A stretch of 34,434 nucleotides of DNA. Source: Escherichia coli. GTDB taxonomy: Bacteria; Pseudomonadota; Gammaproteobacteria; Enterobacterales; Enterobacteriaceae. The stretch's first letter is position 1, and every line of letters starts with the position of its first letter. The position numbers were made by a program, and so were the translations under genes. The notes beneath the pieces were generated by a model. That model searched no databases and had not been told where the DNA came from. It was given only the letters and a program-made list of their open reading frames with translations. The stretch lies in the NCBI RefSeq assembly GCF_003334385.1, contig NZ_QOWN01000046.1; one strand, 5' to 3'. This document shows positions 4,005-18,376 of this stretch, in pieces.

Positions 4005-5448
4005 CCTGTCCGCTGTTGATTTTTCCCAGCAGATGCTGATTTCGTGTCATGCCGCCCAGCTCCCGGTGCCAGTATGTTCTGGCCTCAATACGCCCCTTTT
4101 CCCGGTACAACTGGAAAAAACGGGCATCCGGGGAGATGACTTCTGCGATCACCGTTCGTCCTGTCACGCCACGCCAGCAGTGCGGGCAGCCTTCATGATT
4201 TCGCAGATATACCTGGTCCGGGTTGCAGACGCTTTCCACCAGGCGCCGTTCATCATCCGTGCGCTCGGTCGCCACCTCATGCCAGGGGCGACGGCAGTGC
4301 GGACATATCAGCTGAACCAGACGCTGGCTCAGCAGGCCAATGAACAGTTGCGGGTCGGCAATCATCCTGGCCTGCACCCCCTCCATCTCAAGACGTTCGA
4401 GGATGTTAATCGGGTCGTTCGCATGGATGGTGGTCAGCATCAGATGGCCGGTCATGGCGGCTTTTATTGCCGTAATGGCGGAATCGTGGTCGCGGATTTC
4501 ACCGTTCAGGATCCCGTCGGGGTCAAGACGCAGTGCCGATTTGATGGAGTCCACCCAGCCCTGCGCGGTATCCATGACGGCGGTCTGAATGGCACCGGGA
4601 ATACGCCCTTCCGGCGGGGATTCGATGGTGAACAGCCTGCGACGGGGAAGAAGAATACCGCCGGTGTTGTTGAAGCCGTACTGTTCAAGGTACGCCGCAG
4701 AGGCGGTTCTCAGCGTGGTGGATTTTCCTGAGCCGGTGGGGCCTGAGAGCGTGATAATGCCTTCAGGGCGCTGCAGAATGCGGCGAAGAGTGCGCTCCTG
4801 GTCAGGGTGATAGCCCAGCATACTGAAGGTCGGGATTTGCTGACTGTCATCCTTGATCAGACGGAGCACAGCATAGAGGCCGCCCACACAGGGGTAGTGG
4901 GAGTAGCGTGCACCAAACAGACCGGCCAGTTTCAGATACTGCTCTGAAAGACGTGCATCCTGAGGCACCCCGGGATCAAACTGTGTGCCTTTGATAACAT
5001 CGGTCATGCCGGAATAGGTGGCCCCCAGTAATTCGAGGCCTTCTTCTTTCCGGAGGATATCGAGCACTTCCAGTTCGCCGTGAACCCGGGCTTCCACATA
5101 GGTGAAGTCCGTGTTGTCTCGTCCCGGGGTCATATGAAGGTCTGAGGCACCAAGAGAGGCAGAATGGCGGATATAGCCGAGCATTTTCTGCTGTACCGGG
5201 TTAATGACGCTTTCATCACCGGCGGTTGTGGTGTCCTGTCTGAGGCGGGCTATCACATCCAGGGTGGTGAACTCAAAGTCTCCCACACGCCCCTGATGAC
5301 GTGCGCGCAGGCGGGTCAGATATTCCTGGACGGCACGCAGATGTTTTTTTCCCTCCACGACCCTGACCCGCAGATGACCGGTTTTATCTGTGTCGATAGC
5401 CACATAATCCAGAATGTCATCCGGTGGCAGGTCTGCAGACTCCAACAT
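3940..5448 (-). CDS. pilQ: PilQ, type IV pilus/type II secretion-family assembly ATPase
   Basis: 502 aa with Walker A GPTGSGKST and a C-terminal tetracysteine motif (CPHC...CPHC) typical of GspE/PilB ATPases. Confidence 0.9.
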   Translation of the reverse strand: MLESADLPPDDILDYVAIDTDKTGHLRVRVVEGKKHLRAVQEYLTRLRARHQGRVGDFEFTTLDVIARLRQDTTTAGDESVINPVQQKMLGYIRHSASLGASDLHMTPGRDNTDFTYVEARVHGELEVLDILRKEEGLELLGATYSGMTDVIKGTQFDPGVPQDARLSEQYLKLAGLFGARYSHYPCVGGLYAVLRLIKDDSQQIPTFSMLGYHPDQERTLRRILQRPEGIITLSGPTGSGKSTTLRTASAAYLEQYGFNNTGGILLPRRRLFTIESPPEGRIPGAIQTAVMDTAQGWVDSIKSALRLDPDGILNGEIRDHDSAITAIKAAMTGHLMLTTIHANDPINILERLEMEGVQARMIADPQLFIGLLSQRLVQLICPHCRRPWHEVATERTDDERRLVESVCNPDQVYLRNHEGCPHCWRGVTGRTVIAEVISPDARFFQLYREKGRIEARTYWHRELGGMTRNQHLLGKINSGQVDPLAAHYISPIDEDSYTLLH

Positions 5449-5544: not shown

Positions 5545-6141
5545 TCAGCACAGGCTTAACAGTGTAAAAATGATTACGCCTCCAAAGGCGAATAACAGGG
5601 GAATGTTTTTCTCCGGCTGTGTTGATCTCAGCGTTAATACCGGTGTGGCGAGAGCGTAAAAAATAATACCTGCGGTATAAATAAAATAAGGTGTGATGCC
5701 GGACAGATTACATATACTGGCGAATATCATAAGAATGACGGCAACTACCGATAAAATAATGGAAGTATTCTTCCATTCACCAGATGGTGTAAGTGAAATG
5801 ATATCGCCATCCTGTTTATAGTTCGTGTTCAGCTTCAGGAAATGACGGATATCTTTCAGCGTGTTCAGTTTCTGCTGGATCTCTTCCACAAGTTCCTGTC
5901 TGTCGGTTTTTTCACGGAGCAGCTGGAATTTTGTCTCCCTCAGTACAGATATAATACGGTCCACCTGGCCGGGGGAGGGATAGTAATGATGTTCGAGCAT
6001 CCACCGGACATCGGCGATTAACCGGTCAGTTACCGGTGTATTACCGTTGTTAATGAGAGGTGTTTCGTGCATCCACTGAAATATGCGGTAGATATGTTGC
6101 TTAACAAAAATAAAATCATCGGTGGTTTTATTCTCCAGCAT
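5545..6141 (-). CDS. Hypothetical membrane protein (soluble N-terminal domain plus C-terminal transmembrane helices) embedded in the pil operon
   Basis: 198-aa ORF between pilP and pilQ; noticeably more AT-rich than the flanking pil genes; no family recognised. Confidence 0.5.
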   Translation of the reverse strand: MLENKTTDDFIFVKQHIYRIFQWMHETPLINNGNTPVTDRLIADVRWMLEHHYYPSPGQVDRIISVLRETKFQLLREKTDRQELVEEIQQKLNTLKDIRHFLKLNTNYKQDGDIISLTPSGEWKNTSIILSVVAVILMIFASICNLSGITPYFIYTAGIIFYALATPVLTLRSTQPEKNIPLLFAFGGVIIFTLLSLC

Positions 6142-6236: not shown

Positions 6237-6791
6237 TTACGCAGGTGATATATCACACCAGAGGAAATACAGCGGAATGAAGCTGTAGAGTGACCAGAAA
6301 AGCCCGACGGGATCTTTTGCCCACAGGCATAAGAATGTCAGTCCGGTGCACCATGCGCCGGCAAGTGCCGCGCATAATTCAGCGCCTCCGGAATTGCCGC
6401 TCTTCATCATATAACAGAGCACGATCAGCAGTGGGATAATGAAGACGAGCGGCAGGACAAAGGATTCGGCTGCGGATATCCATTCCCGGTAACGCCAGCG
6501 GTCGTTTAATCTGTCGGCATCATATTTCAGACAGTTGCTCAGGAACGCCAGATCGTTCATGAGGGGGGCGTCCTGGCCATACTGCGCCGCGAGGCGCATT
6601 CTGGCACCCCACAACCGGGCACTCAGGGCACGGAGTTGTGCCGGGGTGACCTGTTTTCCCCGACAAAGTTGTTCCTGTAATTGTGTTGCCTCGTGGACAA
6701 TATCTGTGTGGTTCACCCCGTATTCTGCAGCGGCTGTTTCCAGGTCACGGATGATCAGGCTGAGCCAGGATATCAGTTCACTGATGTTCAT
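6237..6791 (-). CDS. Hypothetical membrane protein embedded in the pil operon
   Basis: 184-aa ORF with the same architecture as its neighbour (soluble N-terminus, hydrophobic C-terminal segments); no family recognised. Confidence 0.5.
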   Translation of the reverse strand: MNISELISWLSLIIRDLETAAAEYGVNHTDIVHEATQLQEQLCRGKQVTPAQLRALSARLWGARMRLAAQYGQDAPLMNDLAFLSNCLKYDADRLNDRWRYREWISAAESFVLPLVFIIPLLIVLCYMMKSGNSGGAELCAALAGAWCTGLTFLCLWAKDPVGLFWSLYSFIPLYFLWCDISPA

Positions 6792-10691: not shown

Positions 10692-11762
10692 TTATTCCTG
10701 TGGACGATCTGTCACCCGCAGCAGACATTGTGCTGTGCTGGTCCGGGCATACAGCGGTTTTTCCACCGGGGTGTAGAGTGCGAAGAGCTGTTCCAGCGCC
10801 TGGCGGAAACTGCCGGTGAAAACCAGAGGGGCATCGATGCTGTAGTTGACAGGTGTTTCCCAGCGTAGCGTCCAGGTGCCGTGGGGGCATTTTTCGGATG
10901 ATGTCCAGCGGGCCAGTCCGTCTTTCAGGGTGGTCCCCTTTTCCATTTTCCACTGCCGTGGCGGTATGACCTTCTGCGGTGGTGGCACTACCGGTTTCGT
11001 GGCCACCGGGGCTGGCGTGGTTGTTCTGCTCTCTGGTGTTCCGGATGTCCCGGTGGTGGTCTGAGCCCGGGAAACGCTGACGGCAGGTGTCACTGGTGTC
11101 GGGCCTGCCGGCGTTGCGGTGCTGCCCCTGAACGGATTACGCGGTGTATCAGCAGCTTTCTGTGAACCCTGCGGTGCCGTGACGTCGACCGGCGGTGTTG
11201 CAGAGGTCGTGACAGTCAGTATTTTCCTGTTCCAGTCCATATGTCCGTAAAGCTGCTGGCCGGCCAGCAGCGCATTCAGTGCCCGGTGCCACTGGTCATT
11301 AACGGACCAGACGGGGAGGCGTTTGTTCAGTGCCGGTATGGCAGCGTTCTGTTGCCGGAACTGCCAGCCGGGTGGCAGCAACGGGCGTATCCAGTCACTG
11401 ACGGAGCGCTGACGTGCCTCACGTAAATAAACGACGGATGACTGACCGGGTTTACCGGTCATAACCAGTGCGGGCAGCTGTGTGGCCTGAAGGAGCGGGC
11501 GGGGAGGCAGTGCGGTACTCTGGCTGCTGACTGCGGTTGTGGGCGTCGCTGTTGTTGTCGGGCGGGGCGGCGTCACAGGGCGGGTCACCGGTGGCGGAAG
11601 CAGACGTTTTTGCGTATGGGCGATAATGGCAGCGCTTTCGCGAATTTGTCCGTCGACGAACACCAGAGCCGGAGGCGTGGTGTCAGGAACAGGCGTGGCA
11701 TTAAAGGCCGTACAGCCGCTGAGTAATGACGGCAGAAGGAGTGTAAGTGATTTCTTTTTCAT
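10692..11762 (-). CDS. pilL: PilL lipoprotein, first gene of the pil operon in this window
   Basis: 356 aa; lipoprotein signal LLPSLLSGCTAF followed by a Pro/Thr-rich linker. Confidence 0.7.
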   Translation of the reverse strand: MKKKSLTLLLPSLLSGCTAFNATPVPDTTPPALVFVDGQIRESAAIIAHTQKRLLPPPVTRPVTPPRPTTTATPTTAVSSQSTALPPRPLLQATQLPALVMTGKPGQSSVVYLREARQRSVSDWIRPLLPPGWQFRQQNAAIPALNKRLPVWSVNDQWHRALNALLAGQQLYGHMDWNRKILTVTTSATPPVDVTAPQGSQKAADTPRNPFRGSTATPAGPTPVTPAVSVSRAQTTTGTSGTPESRTTTPAPVATKPVVPPPQKVIPPRQWKMEKGTTLKDGLARWTSSEKCPHGTWTLRWETPVNYSIDAPLVFTGSFRQALEQLFALYTPVEKPLYARTSTAQCLLRVTDRPQE

Positions 11763-11863
11763 AGAATAAATCCGGTATGTATCGGGTTACGGTATAAGAC
11801 AGGTGGCTGGTAACAGGTCTTCAGATAAATATAATATCATCAGGATATTGATGATGAACATTC

Positions 11864-12304
11864 ATGTTCGGGGTGATTATGAAAACTAAAACATTCCGGT
11901 TCCGGAAATATAAAAAGAAAAACGTTCTGCTGCAAATAATAGTTTCCAGGAAACAAGTGATATTGTTACGCAATATTATGACGGACTCTTTATTGTTTTG
12001 CTCGATAGGTTTTGTGTTTATGAATATGTGTGATTCAAAATATACGTTGATTTCTGGTGAGGGTGGTTTACGTGCTGATTGTGCCGATTATTTATTCTTT
12101 GCCGTATATGCAATTGCGTTGCTAATGATAATTTTATGGATGACAGCTTCAGTTATTTATTCTATTGAAGAATATACGAGTCAGGAAAAATACGGTAAAA
12201 GTAAAGTCTATAGCTACTTCTGGTTTTTTATCTGGTTTTTTGTTTTTAACTGTGCTGTTTATTCTTCTCTGAAGGCAATAAATATAAAAGATATAATCAG
12301 CTAA
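11864..12304 (+). CDS. Hypothetical small membrane protein (AT-rich islet)
   Basis: 146-aa ORF with hydrophobic segments in a low-GC region; convergent with the next ORF. Confidence 0.35.
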   Translation: MFGVIMKTKTFRFRKYKKKNVLLQIIVSRKQVILLRNIMTDSLLFCSIGFVFMNMCDSKYTLISGEGGLRADCADYLFFAVYAIALLMIILWMTASVIYSIEEYTSQEKYGKSKVYSYFWFFIWFFVFNCAVYSSLKAINIKDIIS

Positions 12305-13184
12305 TGGCAGCAGAGGGATTCACGATAAAACCAATGACGTAACCTGTTCCCGAGCAATAAAGGACTGTTGCCGGGGATGTTTTTCGTGTATCCCATATCT
12401 TTGAATCTGTATCAGATGGCGTGTGTTCAATGACCGATAAACTGGCCGGAATGGTCGTGTTAAAAAAAATACTTAACGCGCCTGTAAATAAAGCAGCGGG
12501 AAGAGAAATGCTGGAATGATATATCCATGTGGAGAGTATCAGTGCCAGAATAGCATTTCCTGTATTTATATAATAAAACCAGTCGTTATGGCGCAGATAC
12601 CGGGTAACGGAGAGCCCCCTGGCGGACACGCCATCCGGGAAATGCAGCGCCAGAAGTAGGAGATAAATAACTGCTATTTCAGCCAGTGTAACAGGCAGCA
12701 TAATGGAAAGACGTGACAGGAATGACATCAGCATGTCACTTATGACAGGATTAAGTCGTGTTGAAGATAATTCGTAAATGCCGGTTGTAAAACAGAACAT
12801 ATAACCCAGTCCGGCATAAGCAATAATGGAAACCGGCGTCAGTTTGTTTGATTTGTATGTTTTATACGTTCTCGTTGCTTCTTTAATGGTTAAAATTGTC
12901 AGCAGGGATGTGAGAATCATAACGGGTGGTATATATATGCAGATATATACCTGCAAAGGGTACTCAGTATCGTATACCCGGGTTGTTAATATAACGGACA
13001 GACTCAATAAGGATATATTTCCGAAATGAAACCAGCGATACTGTTGAAGATACTGGAAAACAGTGATGCCTGAAGAAAATGTCCATTTGCCGCGAGCATA
13101 AATAACAACCCAGAATAAAGAACTAATGATACATATCATCAGTATGCCGGGTAATATTGCAAAAATAAATGATGATGTGCTCAT
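12297..13184 (-). CDS. Hypothetical polytopic membrane protein (AT-rich islet)
   Basis: 295-aa ORF with multiple predicted transmembrane helices; low GC relative to the neighbouring pil and yqiK genes. Confidence 0.45.
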   Translation of the reverse strand: MSTSSFIFAILPGILMICIISSLFWVVIYARGKWTFSSGITVFQYLQQYRWFHFGNISLLSLSVILTTRVYDTEYPLQVYICIYIPPVMILTSLLTILTIKEATRTYKTYKSNKLTPVSIIAYAGLGYMFCFTTGIYELSSTRLNPVISDMLMSFLSRLSIMLPVTLAEIAVIYLLLLALHFPDGVSARGLSVTRYLRHNDWFYYINTGNAILALILSTWIYHSSISLPAALFTGALSIFFNTTIPASLSVIEHTPSDTDSKIWDTRKTSPATVLYCSGTGYVIGFIVNPSAAIS

Positions 13185-13376
13185 TATTAAATCTCCATCA
13201 GCATGGTGATGCTTAAATTTTTACGGTTGTGAGGTGCGTAATAAATATCATGTGTAGTTGTGAATAATAGCGTCAGCAACATATATAAAAATAATCTGCA
13301 TTCCTGAAAAATATCGTGGTTGTGAAATATTTAATTTTTACCCCCTTTTATGGGGGATGAAAAGCAGGCTGTCAGG

Positions 13377-13694
13377 CTATAACTGAACGCGGTTTCTGGA
13401 TTTTGGTGCTAATGTCACATCTTTCCATTCACAGCTGCTTCCGGGGATACGCTCTTTGCGTCGTATTATACGGGAGTTCTGACACACAATAATTAAGCCA
13501 TTGTCTGCCGTCTGAAATGGCATTATAGCGATGTTTATATCTTCTGTTGCAGGAATATAACTGACTTTCTTTTCACATGTATTGGTGTATATGACAACTC
13601 TGAATTTTTCTGCGGACATTTTCAATCCTCTTTTAAACCAGAATATCCCGTGAGGGCATTCTTTGTGAAAAAGATGCCGGAAAAATTCCGGCAC
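13377..13694 (-). CDS. Hypothetical protein immediately downstream of the flotillin gene (true start possibly the internal Met MSAEKF)
   Basis: ORF begins 6 nt after the yqiK-like stop on the same strand, consistent with co-transcription. Confidence 0.35.
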   Translation of the reverse strand: MPEFFRHLFHKECPHGIFWFKRGLKMSAEKFRVVIYTNTCEKKVSYIPATEDINIAIMPFQTADNGLIIVCQNSRIIRRKERIPGSSCEWKDVTLAPKSRNRVQL

Positions 13695-13699
13695 GGGGA

Positions 13700-15394
13700 T
13701 TAAACCTGTTGTGGTTCTGAGTTATCCGGAGCGGTTACCGGTTCGCTGACATCCGGAACCTTTTCCGGGGCAGGCATGACCAGTGGACGTGTCAGGGCTG
13801 TAAGTCCTTCACCGGATAAACCCACCTCTTTCAGCAGGGAGTCGATGAGCGGAGCCTGTGTACGGTAAGCCAGAGCGGCGGTTACTGCCTGTTCAGCGAG
13901 ATTTCCGCCACTTATGTCGGTTGTTGCTGTTTTACCGCGGGTAACACCGCCATTCAGACCATCCACCTGAATGATTTTAATACCGTCAATGGATTTCATT
14001 GGTTCTGTGGACTTCTCTATGACGGCAGGTAATGCATCCAGCAGGGCAAGACGGAAGCGGAGGCTGGTCTGCTCATCCGAAAGCACGTTAATGGCATCGT
14101 TCAGTGCGCGCTGTGCTTCTGCTTCTGCCAGACCTTTCTGACGGGTGGCCTCCGCCAGTTCAATAATTGCTGCTGCCTGGAGTTCGGCTGCTTCTTTTTC
14201 AGCCTGTGCGCAAACCGTCAGTTCAACCGCTTTCGTTTCAGCTTCCTGAGCAGCAGCAATCAGGGCAACCTGTTTGGTACGGTCGGCCTCCGCAGTCTGG
14301 CGGGTGGTTTCCACATCCTGCTGGGCCTGTACGGCCTCAGCCAGTGCTTTACTTGCCCGGGCTTCTGCCTGTGACTGCTCTTCCGATTTTGCCGCCACGG
14401 CAATGGCTCTGGCCTGGCTGGCGATTTCGGTTGCCTGCTGTTGCTCAATTTCCCGTATGGCCACTTCCCGTTCGGCTTCGACCTGGCGGGTACGCACTAT
14501 CTGCTGTCGTTCGATTTCGGCTTCCTCTATCTTACGTTCAGCCAGAATTCGCGCGGATTCTGCTTCACGACGTCGTTCAGCTTCAATAGCAGCAATACTG
14601 GCACTCTGCTCTGCCGTACGGGTTTTTACCCGTTGTTGTTGCTCCAGAGTCATGAAGGCTTCCTGCTGTTCAATCTCCAGACGTCGGGAGAGTGCATCCC
14701 GGTTTTTTTCCCTGATGGCCACTTCAACATCCTGCTCAACTTCGTTGCGTTCGCGGCGACGACGTTCTGTTTCCTGGGTCAGAAGGGTCAGGCCTTCAGC
14801 ATCAAAGGCATTGTCAGGATTAAAATGTACCCGTGCAGTCTGGTTGAAACTTGTCAGCGACACACTTTCAAGCTCCAGACCGTTTTTGGATAAGTCTTCC
14901 GCAACGGTGTTCTGCACACCCTGAACAAAGTTCTCGCGGGCATCCTGTAAATCCTGCATGCTCATTCTGGCCGCCGTGGCCCGTAGGGCATCAACAAATT
15001 TATCCTCGACCAGACTACGCAGATCTTCAGGTGTGAGCGTGCGTTGTCCCAGCGTCTGGGCTGCAGTGGATATTCCTTCGGCTGATGGTTTTACCCGAAG
15101 AAAAAAGGCAACGGCAACATCAACACGCATGCGGTCGCGGGTTATGAGACTTTCAGCCGCTGCACGACTGACTTCCAGCTTCAGGGTGTTCATGTTGACG
15201 GGAATTGTTTCGTGAAAAATAGGCATAACAATTGCACCGCCACTCATTACCACTTTTTGGCCTCCCAGACCTGTGCGGACAAAGGCCTGCTCTGCCGATG
15301 CCCGGCGGTACAGGCGGGCAAATATCAGCCCGATAACGAACAGGGTGAGGACCAGCGCTATAACGGTAAACAACCATCCCGGAAGATTAAACAT
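13700..15394 (-). CDS. yqiK: Flotillin-like SPFH/band-7 inner-membrane protein (YqiK-like)
   Basis: 564 aa; N-terminal transmembrane helix, SPFH-like domain, long Ala/Glu/Gln/Arg-rich coiled-coil region; matches E. coli YqiK (about 553 aa) in architecture. Confidence 0.8.
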   Translation of the reverse strand: MFNLPGWLFTVIALVLTLFVIGLIFARLYRRASAEQAFVRTGLGGQKVVMSGGAIVMPIFHETIPVNMNTLKLEVSRAAAESLITRDRMRVDVAVAFFLRVKPSAEGISTAAQTLGQRTLTPEDLRSLVEDKFVDALRATAARMSMQDLQDARENFVQGVQNTVAEDLSKNGLELESVSLTSFNQTARVHFNPDNAFDAEGLTLLTQETERRRRERNEVEQDVEVAIREKNRDALSRRLEIEQQEAFMTLEQQQRVKTRTAEQSASIAAIEAERRREAESARILAERKIEEAEIERQQIVRTRQVEAEREVAIREIEQQQATEIASQARAIAVAAKSEEQSQAEARASKALAEAVQAQQDVETTRQTAEADRTKQVALIAAAQEAETKAVELTVCAQAEKEAAELQAAAIIELAEATRQKGLAEAEAQRALNDAINVLSDEQTSLRFRLALLDALPAVIEKSTEPMKSIDGIKIIQVDGLNGGVTRGKTATTDISGGNLAEQAVTAALAYRTQAPLIDSLLKEVGLSGEGLTALTRPLVMPAPEKVPDVSEPVTAPDNSEPQQV

Positions 15395-15420: not shown

Positions 15421-16041
15421 TTAAAGAACATCCGGCCAGGGATTCAGTTCGCCCAGCCAGCAGGAACCGGAAAGACGGCAGACAATAATCACTTTGTCTC
15501 CTCGTCTGAATTCTTTCCCGGCCTCCGGCTCCAGCAACAGGTAATGAACCTGCCCGAAGCGGTCTGTGAAGCGACCTTCACAGGGGGAACCCGCCACTGC
15601 GTGATAACCGGTGATGGTGGCCATACAGCCGATGAATGCCTCCTCGGTGAGCGCCGTTGTTTCATCACGGGGTAACCAGGGGGCAATCAGTCTGCCGGTG
15701 CGGTGTACGAGAGGACATGTCAGCAGCAGGCAAAGTGGTGTAAGGAGAATGTTCGGGGCAGGAGCCTGCAGCAGATGAATAATAAGACCCTGCAGGAGAA
15801 TGCCGGATATACCAAAAAAACCTGCCAGCATACAGAGGACGATCAGCAGGGGGATCCGTCCGATGTTCAGCCAGTCCAGCGCCTCTCCTGTCAGACCCTC
15901 CGGTAAATCAGGTGTATCCATAGCTGAAGAGAGGGAGTGTCCGCAGAGCAGGGCGATAAGTTCAGCGATACCAGTAAGCAGAACAAAAGTCAGGGCTGCC
16001 AGATAGGGTGCGTTATACGCGGTAAGTAACGTCAGTGTCAT
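15421..16041 (-). CDS. yqiJ: NfeD-like inner-membrane protein (YqiJ-like), partner of the flotillin
   Basis: 206-aa membrane protein directly upstream of the yqiK-like gene with a 27-bp gap; size matches YqiJ (about 209 aa). Confidence 0.7.
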   Translation of the reverse strand: MTLTLLTAYNAPYLAALTFVLLTGIAELIALLCGHSLSSAMDTPDLPEGLTGEALDWLNIGRIPLLIVLCMLAGFFGISGILLQGLIIHLLQAPAPNILLTPLCLLLTCPLVHRTGRLIAPWLPRDETTALTEEAFIGCMATITGYHAVAGSPCEGRFTDRFGQVHYLLLEPEAGKEFRRGDKVIIVCRLSGSCWLGELNPWPDVL

Positions 16042-16307: not shown

Positions 16308-17093
16308 TCAGTGTAAAAGCAGACTGTTGTCCATGCCCCATTCCTCTTCCGCTAAACCTGAATGGCCCACATGAAGAATGCGTGACAGCATATTTCTGCC
16401 GCTGCCGTTCAGACTGCATTCGCGCCCGTGTGCGAGCATAAAACCTTCATCCCGGAATATCTCTTCAACCTCAGACGTGTTGATGGTGGCCGGATGGATT
16501 AATGAAAATGCCACCGGTCTGATCATTCTGCCCGTGGTGGAAAAGGTGTCCCCGGTGCTGTTCAGCTGCAGGATATGACGTTTCCCGGTCTGTGCGCGGG
16601 AAAGTGTCTCACTCAGTAACTGGTCATTCCATGCGCACGTGCCAATCTGCCATCCCAGACTCCTGCACGTGGCAAGCGCTGCTCGGAAGCGGTACAGGTC
16701 ATACAGTGCAGCGTTGTGGCCACTTTCCAGCAGTGATTTCAGCGTGTTCTCTACCGGTATGTCCGTATTGGTGGCCAGCAGTTTGCGCAGGGCGGTGAAC
16801 TCTTCAGGCATCCCCCTGAACTCACTCATCTGTCGGGCGGAATCAAGCCAGTTCAGCAGGAAGCGCCGGCGACGTCGTTCATTGTTGATGCTGTCCGGGG
16901 AGGTGGAGAGCGCTTCAAGCATATTCTCCAGTAACTGAATGACAGGGTTTTCCGGGGATTGAATGGTCATAACGATGTCCTGAAAAAAAATGCCCGGCAG
17001 CCGCTCTCCGTACACGCAGGTGTCACCGTTGCTGGGCATTGGGGAAAAGATGGGGAAAAAAAGCCCGGCCATAAAGGCCGGGAAAGTCGTCAA
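16308..17093 (-). CDS. Hypothetical protein (probable start at the internal ATG about 16970, MTIQSPENP..., with an AGGA 7 nt upstream)
   Basis: Open frame between the NusG-like gene and yqiJ; no family recognised. Confidence 0.5.
   Translation of the reverse strand: MTTFPAFMAGLFFPIFSPMPSNGDTCVYGERLPGIFFQDIVMTIQSPENPVIQLLENMLEALSTSPDSINNERRRRRFLLNWLDSARQMSEFRGMPEEFTALRKLLATNTDIPVENTLKSLLESGHNAALYDLYRFRAALATCRSLGWQIGTCAWNDQLLSETLSRAQTGKRHILQLNSTGDTFSTTGRMIRPVAFSLIHPATINTSEVEEIFRDEGFMLAHGRECSLNGSGRNMLSRILHVGHSGLAEEEWGMDNSLLLH
17056..17082 (-). terminator. Candidate rho-independent terminator after the NusG-like gene
   Basis: GC stem CCCGGCC / GGCCGGG with a 5-nt loop, followed on the minus strand by a run of 7 T (plus-strand A run at about 17056-17062). 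Confidence 0.45.
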
Positions 17094-17109
17094 ATGAAGA
17101 CAGCAATTT

Positions 17110-17751
17110 TCATGTCAACGCTCCGTCATCAGATACCAGGTGCAGGAGCAGGGCGATCCTCGACTCCGGCAGAGGCTGGGCATCAAGCCGGAGGAGGTAC
17201 TGGTAACGCGCTTTTGTCAGCCAGAGGGTGGAGGCAGCATCCAGCTCCTCCCTGGCTGCCGGATTGAGCGCAGGATCCGGGTACACTTTCATCAAAGACT
17301 GAACGATATCCTCCCTGACGGTTTTGATTTCACCGGCCATTTTCACGAAGTCCAGAAAGGCACTGTGACGGCGAAGGTGAGTGAAGCTGTGGCTTTCGGG
17401 GTCTGCTTTCAGGAAAAAGTAACCGGGAAACACGGCGTGTATATGTCGACGGTAACCACAGACTTTATCCGTGCGGCGGACCTTTTTCAGTATCAGGGGT
17501 GTCCAGGGAAGGACGTGTTGTTCGGAAAGCCAGGAAAAGAGATGTTCGCGGTTTTTGCCGGCAGGGATGTACTGTGCCAGATACCAGTTGCGTTGATGTA
17601 ATTCACTGATATTCAAAATCCGGAACGCTCCGCGAAAATCGATCCCCGCAGGGGGGCTTCGATGTTGTTGTGAACGGCGAATACATAAAGCATGTGTCGG
17701 AAACAGCGGCTGACCCACGTTCAGCCTGGCCTGCAGTTCTGACAGGCACAT
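17110..17751 (-). CDS. NusG/RfaH-family (NGN domain) transcription antitermination-like protein; start uncertain, probably downstream of the listed Met
   Basis: The segment NWYLAQYIPAGKNREHLF...LFPGYFFLK resembles the RfaH/NusG N-terminal domain (WY...LFPNY.F). IncI1 plasmids are recalled to carry a NusG-like transfer activator. Confidence 0.6.
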   Translation of the reverse strand: MCLSELQARLNVGQPLFPTHALCIRRSQQHRSPPAGIDFRGAFRILNISELHQRNWYLAQYIPAGKNREHLFSWLSEQHVLPWTPLILKKVRRTDKVCGYRRHIHAVFPGYFFLKADPESHSFTHLRRHSAFLDFVKMAGEIKTVREDIVQSLMKVYPDPALNPAAREELDAASTLWLTKARYQYLLRLDAQPLPESRIALLLHLVSDDGALT

Positions 17752-18296: not shown

Positions 18297-18352
18297 AACC
18301 CCCATAATCTTCTTATCGAACTTGGCGGAACGTAGAGAAGATTATGGGGGCC
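18297..18352 (-). ncRNA. inc: Inc RNA/RNAI-type antisense RNA region (stem-loop I) of the replication control system; exact transcript ends not determined
   Basis: Long perfect stem (ACCCCCATAATCTTCT / AGAAGATTATGGGGG) whose loop contains TTGGCG, the hexanucleotide recalled for IncI-alpha/IncB antisense-target kissing loops; about 25 nt upstream of the leader peptide gene. Confidence 0.5.
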
Positions 18353-18376
18353 TCACAGAATACGGGGTAAGTATAT

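Follow-up and report, generated by a model that had tools for sequence, protein, structure and literature searches.

An orphan pair of membrane-protein genes in the variable slot between pilI and pilL of an IncB/O/K/Z-type plasmid

In the I-complex plasmid R64, the genes leading into the thin-pilus machinery run in the order traB-traC-traD-pilI-pilJ-pilK-pilL, so that pilJ (150 amino acids, aa) and pilK (196 aa) occupy a slot between pilI and pilL. Here we analyse the corresponding slot in a 34,434-nucleotide (nt) stretch of Escherichia coli DNA (contig NZ_QOWN01000046.1; the whole stretch is called the window below), where the space of pilJ and pilK is taken by two orphan genes, A and B, that encode membrane proteins. 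The R64 genes stand at the same position, after the traBC regulators and before pilL, follow a homologous pilI, and include small membrane genes on the operon strand, but R64 has no gene convergent to them, whereas the window has A. The R64 genes pilJ and pilK are AT-rich (GC fractions of 0.36 and 0.37, compared with 0.50 in pilL of the same plasmid) and membrane-anchored, like the slot genes of the window; an AT-rich slot is therefore general in I-complex plasmids. PilK is reportedly required for R64 pili. PilK and TraD of R64, whose genes flank pilI-pilJ in this variable operon head, appear to be paralogs (16693-17283 and 18350-18916 of the R64 locus; 27% identity over 180 residues, tblastn expect value [E] 6e-12).

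Parts of this head are missing from other plasmids: 48% of IncI1 plasmids are without traD, pilI and pilJ (PMC10682676), TP114 (IncI2) functions without pilI, pilJ and pilK (PMC9045228), and pCT has the order pilI-orf111-pilL, without A/B, PilJ or PilK. In pCT, pilS::aph reduces mating in liquid and rci::aph alters the recipient range (PMC4083329). The pCT thin pilus is functional in a plasmid that lacks the pair, an indirect test indicating that the thin pilus does not need A/B, and on this ground we reject the pair as an essential pilus assembly factor.

Two kinds of plasmid-encoded membrane protein outside the pilus machinery also invite comparison. The immunity proteins of pore-forming colicins are inner-membrane proteins of about 110-180 aa with 3-4 transmembrane (TM) helices, encoded convergently to the colicin gene; they have no catalytic residues and diverge rapidly into specificity types. 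The module of which B is built (about 145 aa, about four TM helices) is like them in form only. The cassette of the window has no colicin or other exported toxin gene, and A, being integral to the membrane, is no secreted toxin. The entry-exclusion proteins ExcA (IncI), TraS (F) and Eex (SXT/R391) are small inner-membrane proteins encoded among transfer genes, and in the case of TraS and Eex, backbones that are otherwise alike carry divergent variants with allele specificity. Unlike these, A and B have no assigned donor-side partner, and they share no homology with any of these proteins, ExcA included.

The slot between pilI and pilL

The window belongs to an IncB/O/K/Z-type I-complex plasmid. 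The region matches 463 plasmids in PLSDB, nearly all of them conjugative I-complex replicons of the MPF_I (mating-pair formation) class and of the IncK2/Z or IncI1/B/O types, and is 99.8% identical to the E. coli plasmid p1-S1-KEN-03-A; the E. coli chromosome is never among the matches. The GC fraction falls from 0.60-0.64 in pilL to 0.33-0.41 across about 11750-13700 and rises again to 0.53-0.58 in the flotillin gene, in agreement with the sharp drop that an earlier sequence-only reading had described between pilL and the yqiK-like gene. That reading placed the AT-rich islet between the pil operon and the flotillin gene pair. The islet lies instead within the head of the operon, because pilI, the gene that opens the pil operon of R64, is itself on the flotillin side of A and B. 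We conclude that the islet very probably forms the variable head of an operon for a type IVb thin pilus, carried by an IncB/O/K/Z-type plasmid, and is made up as follows.

10692-11762 (-): pilL, a TcpQ-family lipoprotein of 356 aa; left backbone flank and first conserved thin-pilus machinery gene
11763-11878: divergent intergenic region between pilL and A; conserved backbone, read from the sequence
11879-12304 (+): gene A, an orphan small membrane protein of 141 aa, convergent with B; open reading frame (ORF) and coding sequence called by the annotation pipeline PGAP (WP_243053132.1)
12297-13184 (-): gene B, an orphan polytopic inner-membrane protein of 295 aa, on the pil operon strand; ORF and PGAP coding sequence WP_134871779.1
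13185-13376: AT-rich spacer between B and pilI, with a deletion junction at about 13288
13377-13619 (-): pilI, 80 aa, Pfam PF10623; first gene of the pil operon as R64 defines it

The identity of pilI is well supported. The PF10623 profile matches the 80-aa product with E 1.2e-31 over residues 5-79, the product is 32% identical to R64 PilI (E 7e-11), PLSDB records label the gene as PilI, and its position upstream of pilL at the head of the operon is that seen in R64, pCERC6, pCT and others. PilL of the window is 43% identical to R64 PilL (E 3e-92), and the gene carries the corresponding PGAP product name and Pfam PF10671 in homologous loci.

Within the slot, A co-varies with B, and not with the pilus machinery. 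The two ORFs are conserved across related plasmids, and a lack of such conservation was among the things that the earlier reading said would refute it: A and B are each present in 50 PLSDB records, with B uninterrupted in 48 of its 50. A second pair can stand in their place. Plasmids of the IncK2 type represented by pEC013 carry, at the same site, A' (131 aa, + strand) and an unannotated B' (143 aa, one module, - strand), convergent and abutting; A', found in 87 PLSDB records, is 35% identical to A (E 3e-18) and has the same orientation, and B', found in about 100, is 27-33% identical to B. The members of A/B and A'/B' pairs are always convergent, with ends that abut or overlap. When the window is compared with an A'/B' plasmid that retains the flotillin pair (locus L012; the compared homologous loci are labelled L002-L018, L004 being pEC013 and L007 being R64), the backbone shows 96.3% identity on both sides of the slot, as far as 11862 on the left and starting from 13396 on the right, and nothing is alignable between these positions. 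A/B and A'/B' are therefore alternative cassettes with sharp borders, one at the start of A and the other within pilI, about 20 bp from its 3' end, and the cassette of the window (11863-13395) contains only A, B and the spacer. The cassette alleles differ by about 70%, whereas the surrounding pil machinery genes are about 96% identical across both cassette types; thus A and B are not co-evolving with a component of the pilus.

Several further arrangements of the slot are found among related plasmids. In arrangement (i), pilI is followed after 27 bp by B'', a single-module gene, then after 79 bp by B, convergent A and pilL, in operon-like packing (L014-L017); one of these loci, L016, has an A truncated to 94 aa (4892-5176) with B and B'' intact. 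Arrangement (ii), pilI-orf111-orf94-B-A-pilL, is that of pO104_H21, and grouped with it is pECOED, which has an N-terminally truncated B''-like remnant. The window represents arrangement (iii), derived from (ii) by the loss of 864 bp at 13288; the deletion removed orf94, a 94-aa membrane ORF, and orf111, both present in pO104_H21-type plasmids, and the blastn breakpoints at the junction show the microhomology ACATA..AA. The majority type, arrangement (iv), is pilI-orf111-pilL (pCERC6, pE2863-1, pCT, pMS7163B) and corresponds to (ii) after one of at least two independent deletions of about 1.8 kb, and arrangement (v) is pilI-B'-A'-pilL. The pair is absent by deletion in about two thirds of related plasmids. 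Deletions of the pCERC6 type retain the first 34 codons of A, and the backbone next to pilL is conserved to 11880-11967 in deletion variants, compared with 11862 in the A'/B' plasmids. Frameshifted B and truncated A variants also exist; in a lineage of 171-kb plasmids (L018, 2059-2922), B has a C-terminal frameshift and a length of 287 aa, and A is intact. The commonest occupant of the slot, orf111 (L002, 2727-3062; L005, 4530-4865), encodes a soluble protein of 111 aa that has cysteine pairs of the CxxC type and matches no family; the gene is found on at least 1000 contigs.

These comparisons change the picture of how the islet came to be there. Independent acquisition by this plasmid, as proposed from composition and placement, is not supported, given both the generality of the AT-rich slot and the finding that the version in the window is a deletion derivative of the larger pO104_H21-type region. 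The description of the islet as an accessory, cargo-like module holds up, as the pair is dispensable, lost from about two thirds of relatives, and replaced by an unalignable alternative in a 96%-identical backbone. We considered whether the islet could be a degenerate insertion-sequence (IS) or transposon remnant, a possibility that the sequence-only reading had itself raised. Low GC and variable presence are all that speaks for such a remnant, and we give this origin practically no credence: there are no transposase-like matches, a search of the slot for terminal inverted or flanking direct repeats returned only chance-level 12-17-mers, the cassette borders have no IS-like repeats or Rfam elements, and the deletion junctions show microhomology and not IS ends.

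Two orphan membrane proteins

The predicted products agree with the first description of the islet in most respects. B is a polytopic membrane protein of 295 aa, as described, encoded by an ORF whose ATG follows a GGAG Shine-Dalgarno sequence by 8 nt and whose 3' end shares 8 nt with that of A. Its two halves align at 25% identity across 136 residues (E 2e-10), so that B is a tandem duplication of a module of about 145 aa, each copy with about four TM helices. Hydropathy and the positive-inside rule suggest a topology of four helices per module with the N-terminus outside and basic cytoplasmic loops at residues 33-51, 103-117 and 187-211. The residues invariant in all module copies are Y45, F52, N56, L62, I65, L77, K108, P117, Y128, N145 and P146, and these include a juxtamembrane YLxxxxWFxxxN motif. 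No D, E, H or R is invariant among the copies, which argues for a binding or structural role and not for an enzyme. Outside B itself, the module is found in related plasmids as the single genes B' and B'' or as decayed tandem copies.

We looked for a relationship between this module and the R64 proteins that occupy the same slot. BLASTP of A and B against R64 PilK and PilJ returned nothing, and the profile of the B module reaches an hhalign probability of 0.2% against PilK and 2.9% against PilJ, the latter with an alignment confined to a 14-residue stretch around QYLQQY; homology of B to either protein is rejected. This QYLQQYR/K stretch follows a membrane helix in both proteins (B residues 38-51, R64 PilJ residues 63-76), and at that probability the similarity is insignificant. 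The idea that B replaces PilK fails because there is no such similarity and because pCT and TP114 are piliated without any gene of this kind.

The ORF of A spans 146 aa if it starts at 11864 (11864-12304, +), which is the length first given for this convergent small membrane protein. The likely start is the ATG at 11879, giving 141 aa, because the PGAP call agrees with it and so does the alignment with the start of the distant homolog. Of its first 15 residues, 8 are K/R, and hydropathy gives the protein about three hydrophobic helices, in keeping with its description as a small membrane protein. It is unrelated to B: hhalign gives a probability of 0.1% against the B module, which rules out A as a distant copy of that module.

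Both ORFs are intact, and their substitution patterns indicate purifying selection. Measured against the most divergent full-length variants, the ratio of nonsynonymous to synonymous substitution rates (dN/dS) is 0.38-0.42 for A and 0.26-0.37 for B, compared with 0.25 for PilL and 0.05-0.48 for PilI. Topology and motifs are kept between alleles that are just 27-35% identical. The exact sequences of the pair and of its alternative version are found on hundreds to more than 1000 contigs in surveillance genomes.

A and B are true orphans, restricted to plasmids; every source labels them and their alternative versions "hypothetical protein". Neither matches any Pfam family, even at E up to 10, nor any NCBIfam model; this covers immunity families in both libraries, toxin and antitoxin families in both, and exclusion proteins in NCBIfam, a library that does name ExcA in these plasmids. 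PADLOC-DB 2.0 returned no family for A, B, PilI, orf111 or A' at E up to 1, a PHROG search gave nothing above chance level, PDB profile searches found no relative of A or B with a solved structure, and tblastn against 50,697 phage records found no A/B homologs. Among 5.8e9 proteins, a word-index search recovered B relatives only from E. coli, at 89% identity or more, and of A only close relatives; an exhaustive phmmer scan of 1.84e9 representatives added a single 143-aa protein at 27% identity, and the B-module profile found nothing beyond its own family. A/B are found only in E. coli-type I-complex plasmids. The earlier statement that no ORF of the islet fits a recognised family thus holds for A and B, and does not hold for the third ORF, which is PilI (PF10623). 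What the islet contains is an uncharacterised, plasmid-restricted gene pair in an already known variable slot.

Candidate roles of the pair

The arrangement of genes and signals suggests how the pair might be expressed. The flotillin transcript would stop at a strong terminator, after which a promoter-like site precedes pilI; B, downstream of pilI on the same strand, is probably co-transcribed with it, because the stretch from pilI through B to pilL shows no convincing terminator, and transcription may continue across A, in antisense, into pilL-pilV. A would be transcribed convergently, from the region that it shares divergently with pilL, and this transcription may also damp read-through into pilL. 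B, made of two copies of the 145-aa module, is very probably an inner-membrane protein of about eight TM helices, and A and B would form a self-contained cognate pair whose specificity is mutual or directed toward an outside agent, and not toward the pilus machinery.

We tentatively favour, at somewhat less than even chances, the view that A and B are a cognate membrane pair that gives allele-specific protection, as in immunity or exclusion, and is expressed along with the genes for the pilus and for transfer. It is the strict co-inheritance of the two genes, the presence of ancient alternative alleles in one backbone, the multiplication and decay of the module, the lack of a catalytic signature and the frequent loss of the pair that lead us to this suggestion. 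Several observations weigh against it. Neither protein resembles any immunity, exclusion, toxin or defence family in Pfam, NCBIfam, PADLOC, PHROG or PDB profiles, the cassette has no toxin-like partner except A itself, and ExcA is already supplied from another site on these plasmids. An immunity, exclusion or defence role had also been suggested in the earlier reading; it may apply, but homology lends it no positive support. Deletions have removed the pair from most relatives, and frameshifted and truncated variants occur, so any selective value must be conditional; the I-complex plasmid studied by transposon-directed insertion-site sequencing (TraDIS), pMS7163B, lacks the pair. Weakly constrained membrane helices, together with recombination, could by themselves account for the deep divergence of the alleles. 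The promoter consensus matches on which the expression scheme draws are no commoner than in shuffled sequences, and AlphaFold2 models built with family alignments are unusable (predicted local distance difference test, pLDDT, 46 for A and 37 for B).

A more specific version of the protection-type reading, which we regard as speculative and quite unlikely as it stands, would make A/B and A'/B' two specificity types of an unrecognised plasmid-borne membrane system: either an effector A with a multi-module immunity protein B, or an exclusion pair, switched on with the conjugative type IV pilus. Such a system might discriminate or protect between cells with different I-complex plasmids, or act against pilus-specific phages, and the B modules, whether tandem or orphan, would on this view be immunities that have been collected. 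Specificity or conflict determinants would be expected to show just this pattern, in which one site of a near-identical transfer backbone holds either of two co-inherited cassettes that have diverged deeply. The I-complex (IncI/B/O/K/Z) plasmids of E. coli, Shigella and Salmonella rank among the major carriers of resistance genes, including those for extended-spectrum β-lactamases (ESBLs), and if the pair does have such a role, it would add a new layer to plasmid competition, mutual exclusion, or resistance to pilus-targeting phages.

The likeliest alternative is that B, with or without A, is a non-essential accessory or modulator of the thin pilus, a lineage-specific counterpart of PilJ/PilK that tunes assembly, dynamics or membrane placement. 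The slot and strand that B shares with AT-rich, membrane-anchored pilJ and pilK would be explained in this way, as would its packing directly after pilI and the fact that the pair is never seen outside the pilI-pilL slot; the operon also accepts other lineage-specific membrane ORFs, between pilP and pilQ. We nevertheless consider such a role rather unlikely, given the absence of sequence or profile similarity to PilK and PilJ, the functional pili of pCT and TP114, and the placement of A on the opposite strand. Alleles that differ by some 70% beside nearly constant pil machinery are also not what co-evolution with a pilus partner would produce. Should the pair prove to be a dispensable modulator of this kind, or inert, the value of the present analysis would be corrective, in that the AT-rich patch is a normal variable head of the pil operon and not a defence island of foreign origin.

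That the two genes are strictly co-inherited and converge with overlapping 3' ends would also suit an addiction or toxin-antidote pair, in which A, a small toxin, damages membranes and B is the antidote, itself a membrane protein, the pair serving plasmid stabilisation or abortive infection. A is a small hydrophobic protein, one end of which is polybasic, it is truncated in some plasmids in which B is intact (L016), and deletion variants lose both genes together. The reverse case speaks against this idea: in the 171-kb plasmid lineage A is intact while the frameshift has cost B its last helix. With no match to known toxin-antitoxin families, abortive-infection (Abi) or defence models, and with several toxin-antitoxin and Hok-type systems already on these plasmids, we hold it to be improbable. 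We hold it just as improbable that the locus is mainly regulatory: through transcriptional interference, the convergent A unit would put a brake on expression passing from the pilI promoter into pilL-pilV, and the proteins would matter little. The lack of a convincing terminator from pilI to pilL, the start of A only about 115 bp from pilL across a divergent region that is conserved and contains a perfect inverted repeat, and the retention of the first 34 codons of A in pCERC6-type deletions are all compatible with a brake; but interference alone needs neither conserved membrane proteins nor a module duplication, and both proteins are under purifying selection and are conserved across alleles that have no similarity at the DNA level. 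Finally, at least three independent deletions in the slot, the truncated B''-like remnant in pECOED, the frameshift variants elsewhere and the absence of detectable known domains raise the possibility that A and B are decaying, functionless ORFs in an AT-rich hotspot of recombination and deletion. This is slightly less probable still, because dN/dS is 0.26-0.42, the ORFs are intact in 48 of 50 plasmid records, topology and motifs survive between alleles of 27-35% identity, and the exact sequences recur on hundreds of contigs.

Signals around pilI and other regions of the window

The right flank of the islet contains the following features, which bear on where pilI begins.

13642-13669 (-): sigma-70-like promoter candidate upstream of pilI, TTCACA-16-GATATT, with 9 of 12 consensus matches
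13674-13694 (-): intrinsic terminator, a 9-bp stem followed by CUUUUU, 5 nt past the flotillin stop
13700-15394 (-): flotillin-family gene, the right flank; ORF and PGAP product
15421-16041: NfeD/YqiJ-like OB-fold (oligonucleotide/oligosaccharide-binding fold) gene upstream of the flotillin gene; ORF and PGAP product

Pfam Band_7/Flot and YqiJ domains are present in the flotillin and NfeD-like genes of homologous loci. The terminator (13694-13674) folds with -13.4 kcal/mol and a z-score of -3.41 relative to shuffled sequences, and would end the nfeD-flotillin transcript. A small ORF directly after the flotillin stop had been proposed, and an ORF of 105 aa does exist there (13377-13694, -), with a GTG start 5-6 nt past that stop. 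It is an over-extended form of pilI that reads through the terminator hairpin: the terminator and then the promoter-like site come first, followed by the ATG at 13619, which is preceded by AAAGAGGA and begins the product that matches PilI. The real gene is therefore pilI at 13377-13619 (-). In pEC013 (L004, 3968-4348), the nfeD-flotillin pair is deleted, and the C-terminal codons of flotillin (…LSDEQTSLRFRLALLDALPAVIEKSTE) are fused in frame upstream of pilI.

At the other end of the islet, a perfect 7-bp inverted repeat, ATCATCA-GGATAT-TGATGAT, lies at 11836-11855 between the start codons of pilL and A, immediately preceded by TATAAT at 11830-11835 (+). These elements may serve as operator and promoter, respectively; the repeat is a candidate operator with no regulator assigned. 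Three hairpins considered as terminators within the cassette, at 11885-11915 (-), 12365-12405 (+) and 13335-13375 (-), fold no better than shuffled sequences and are rejected. No known RNA element matched in the islet, and a search for RfaH-type ops sites gave a single distant one-mismatch match, at 21258, fewer than expected by chance.

Elsewhere in the pil operon, two extra ORFs lie between pilP and pilQ (5545-6141, -, and 6237-6791, -; 198 and 184 aa), each encoding a soluble N-terminal part and C-terminal membrane helices; pilP directly adjoins pilQ in R64, pCT and pMS7163B. The 198-aa protein occurs at 90% identity or more in about 113 plasmids, with both A/B and A'/B' cassettes, and has relatives of 33-43% identity in Klebsiella, Salmonella and Erwinia plasmids. 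Linkage of A/B with these ORFs is rejected, as they accompany both cassette types and also occur more widely. A larger AT-rich block of minus-strand ORFs (27000-32600, GC 0.27-0.32) lies beside an IS3-family transposase gene (26169-27185). The block includes genes for an ABC (ATP-binding cassette) ATPase that scores best in NCBIfam against 'putative bacteriocin export ABC transporter' (2e-55, which falls short of the curated cutoff) and for a weakly Lnt/nitrilase-like protein, as well as four ORFs without a family. In the near-identical reference plasmid, colicin Ia/Ib, IS26 and qnrS1 take roughly the place of this block.

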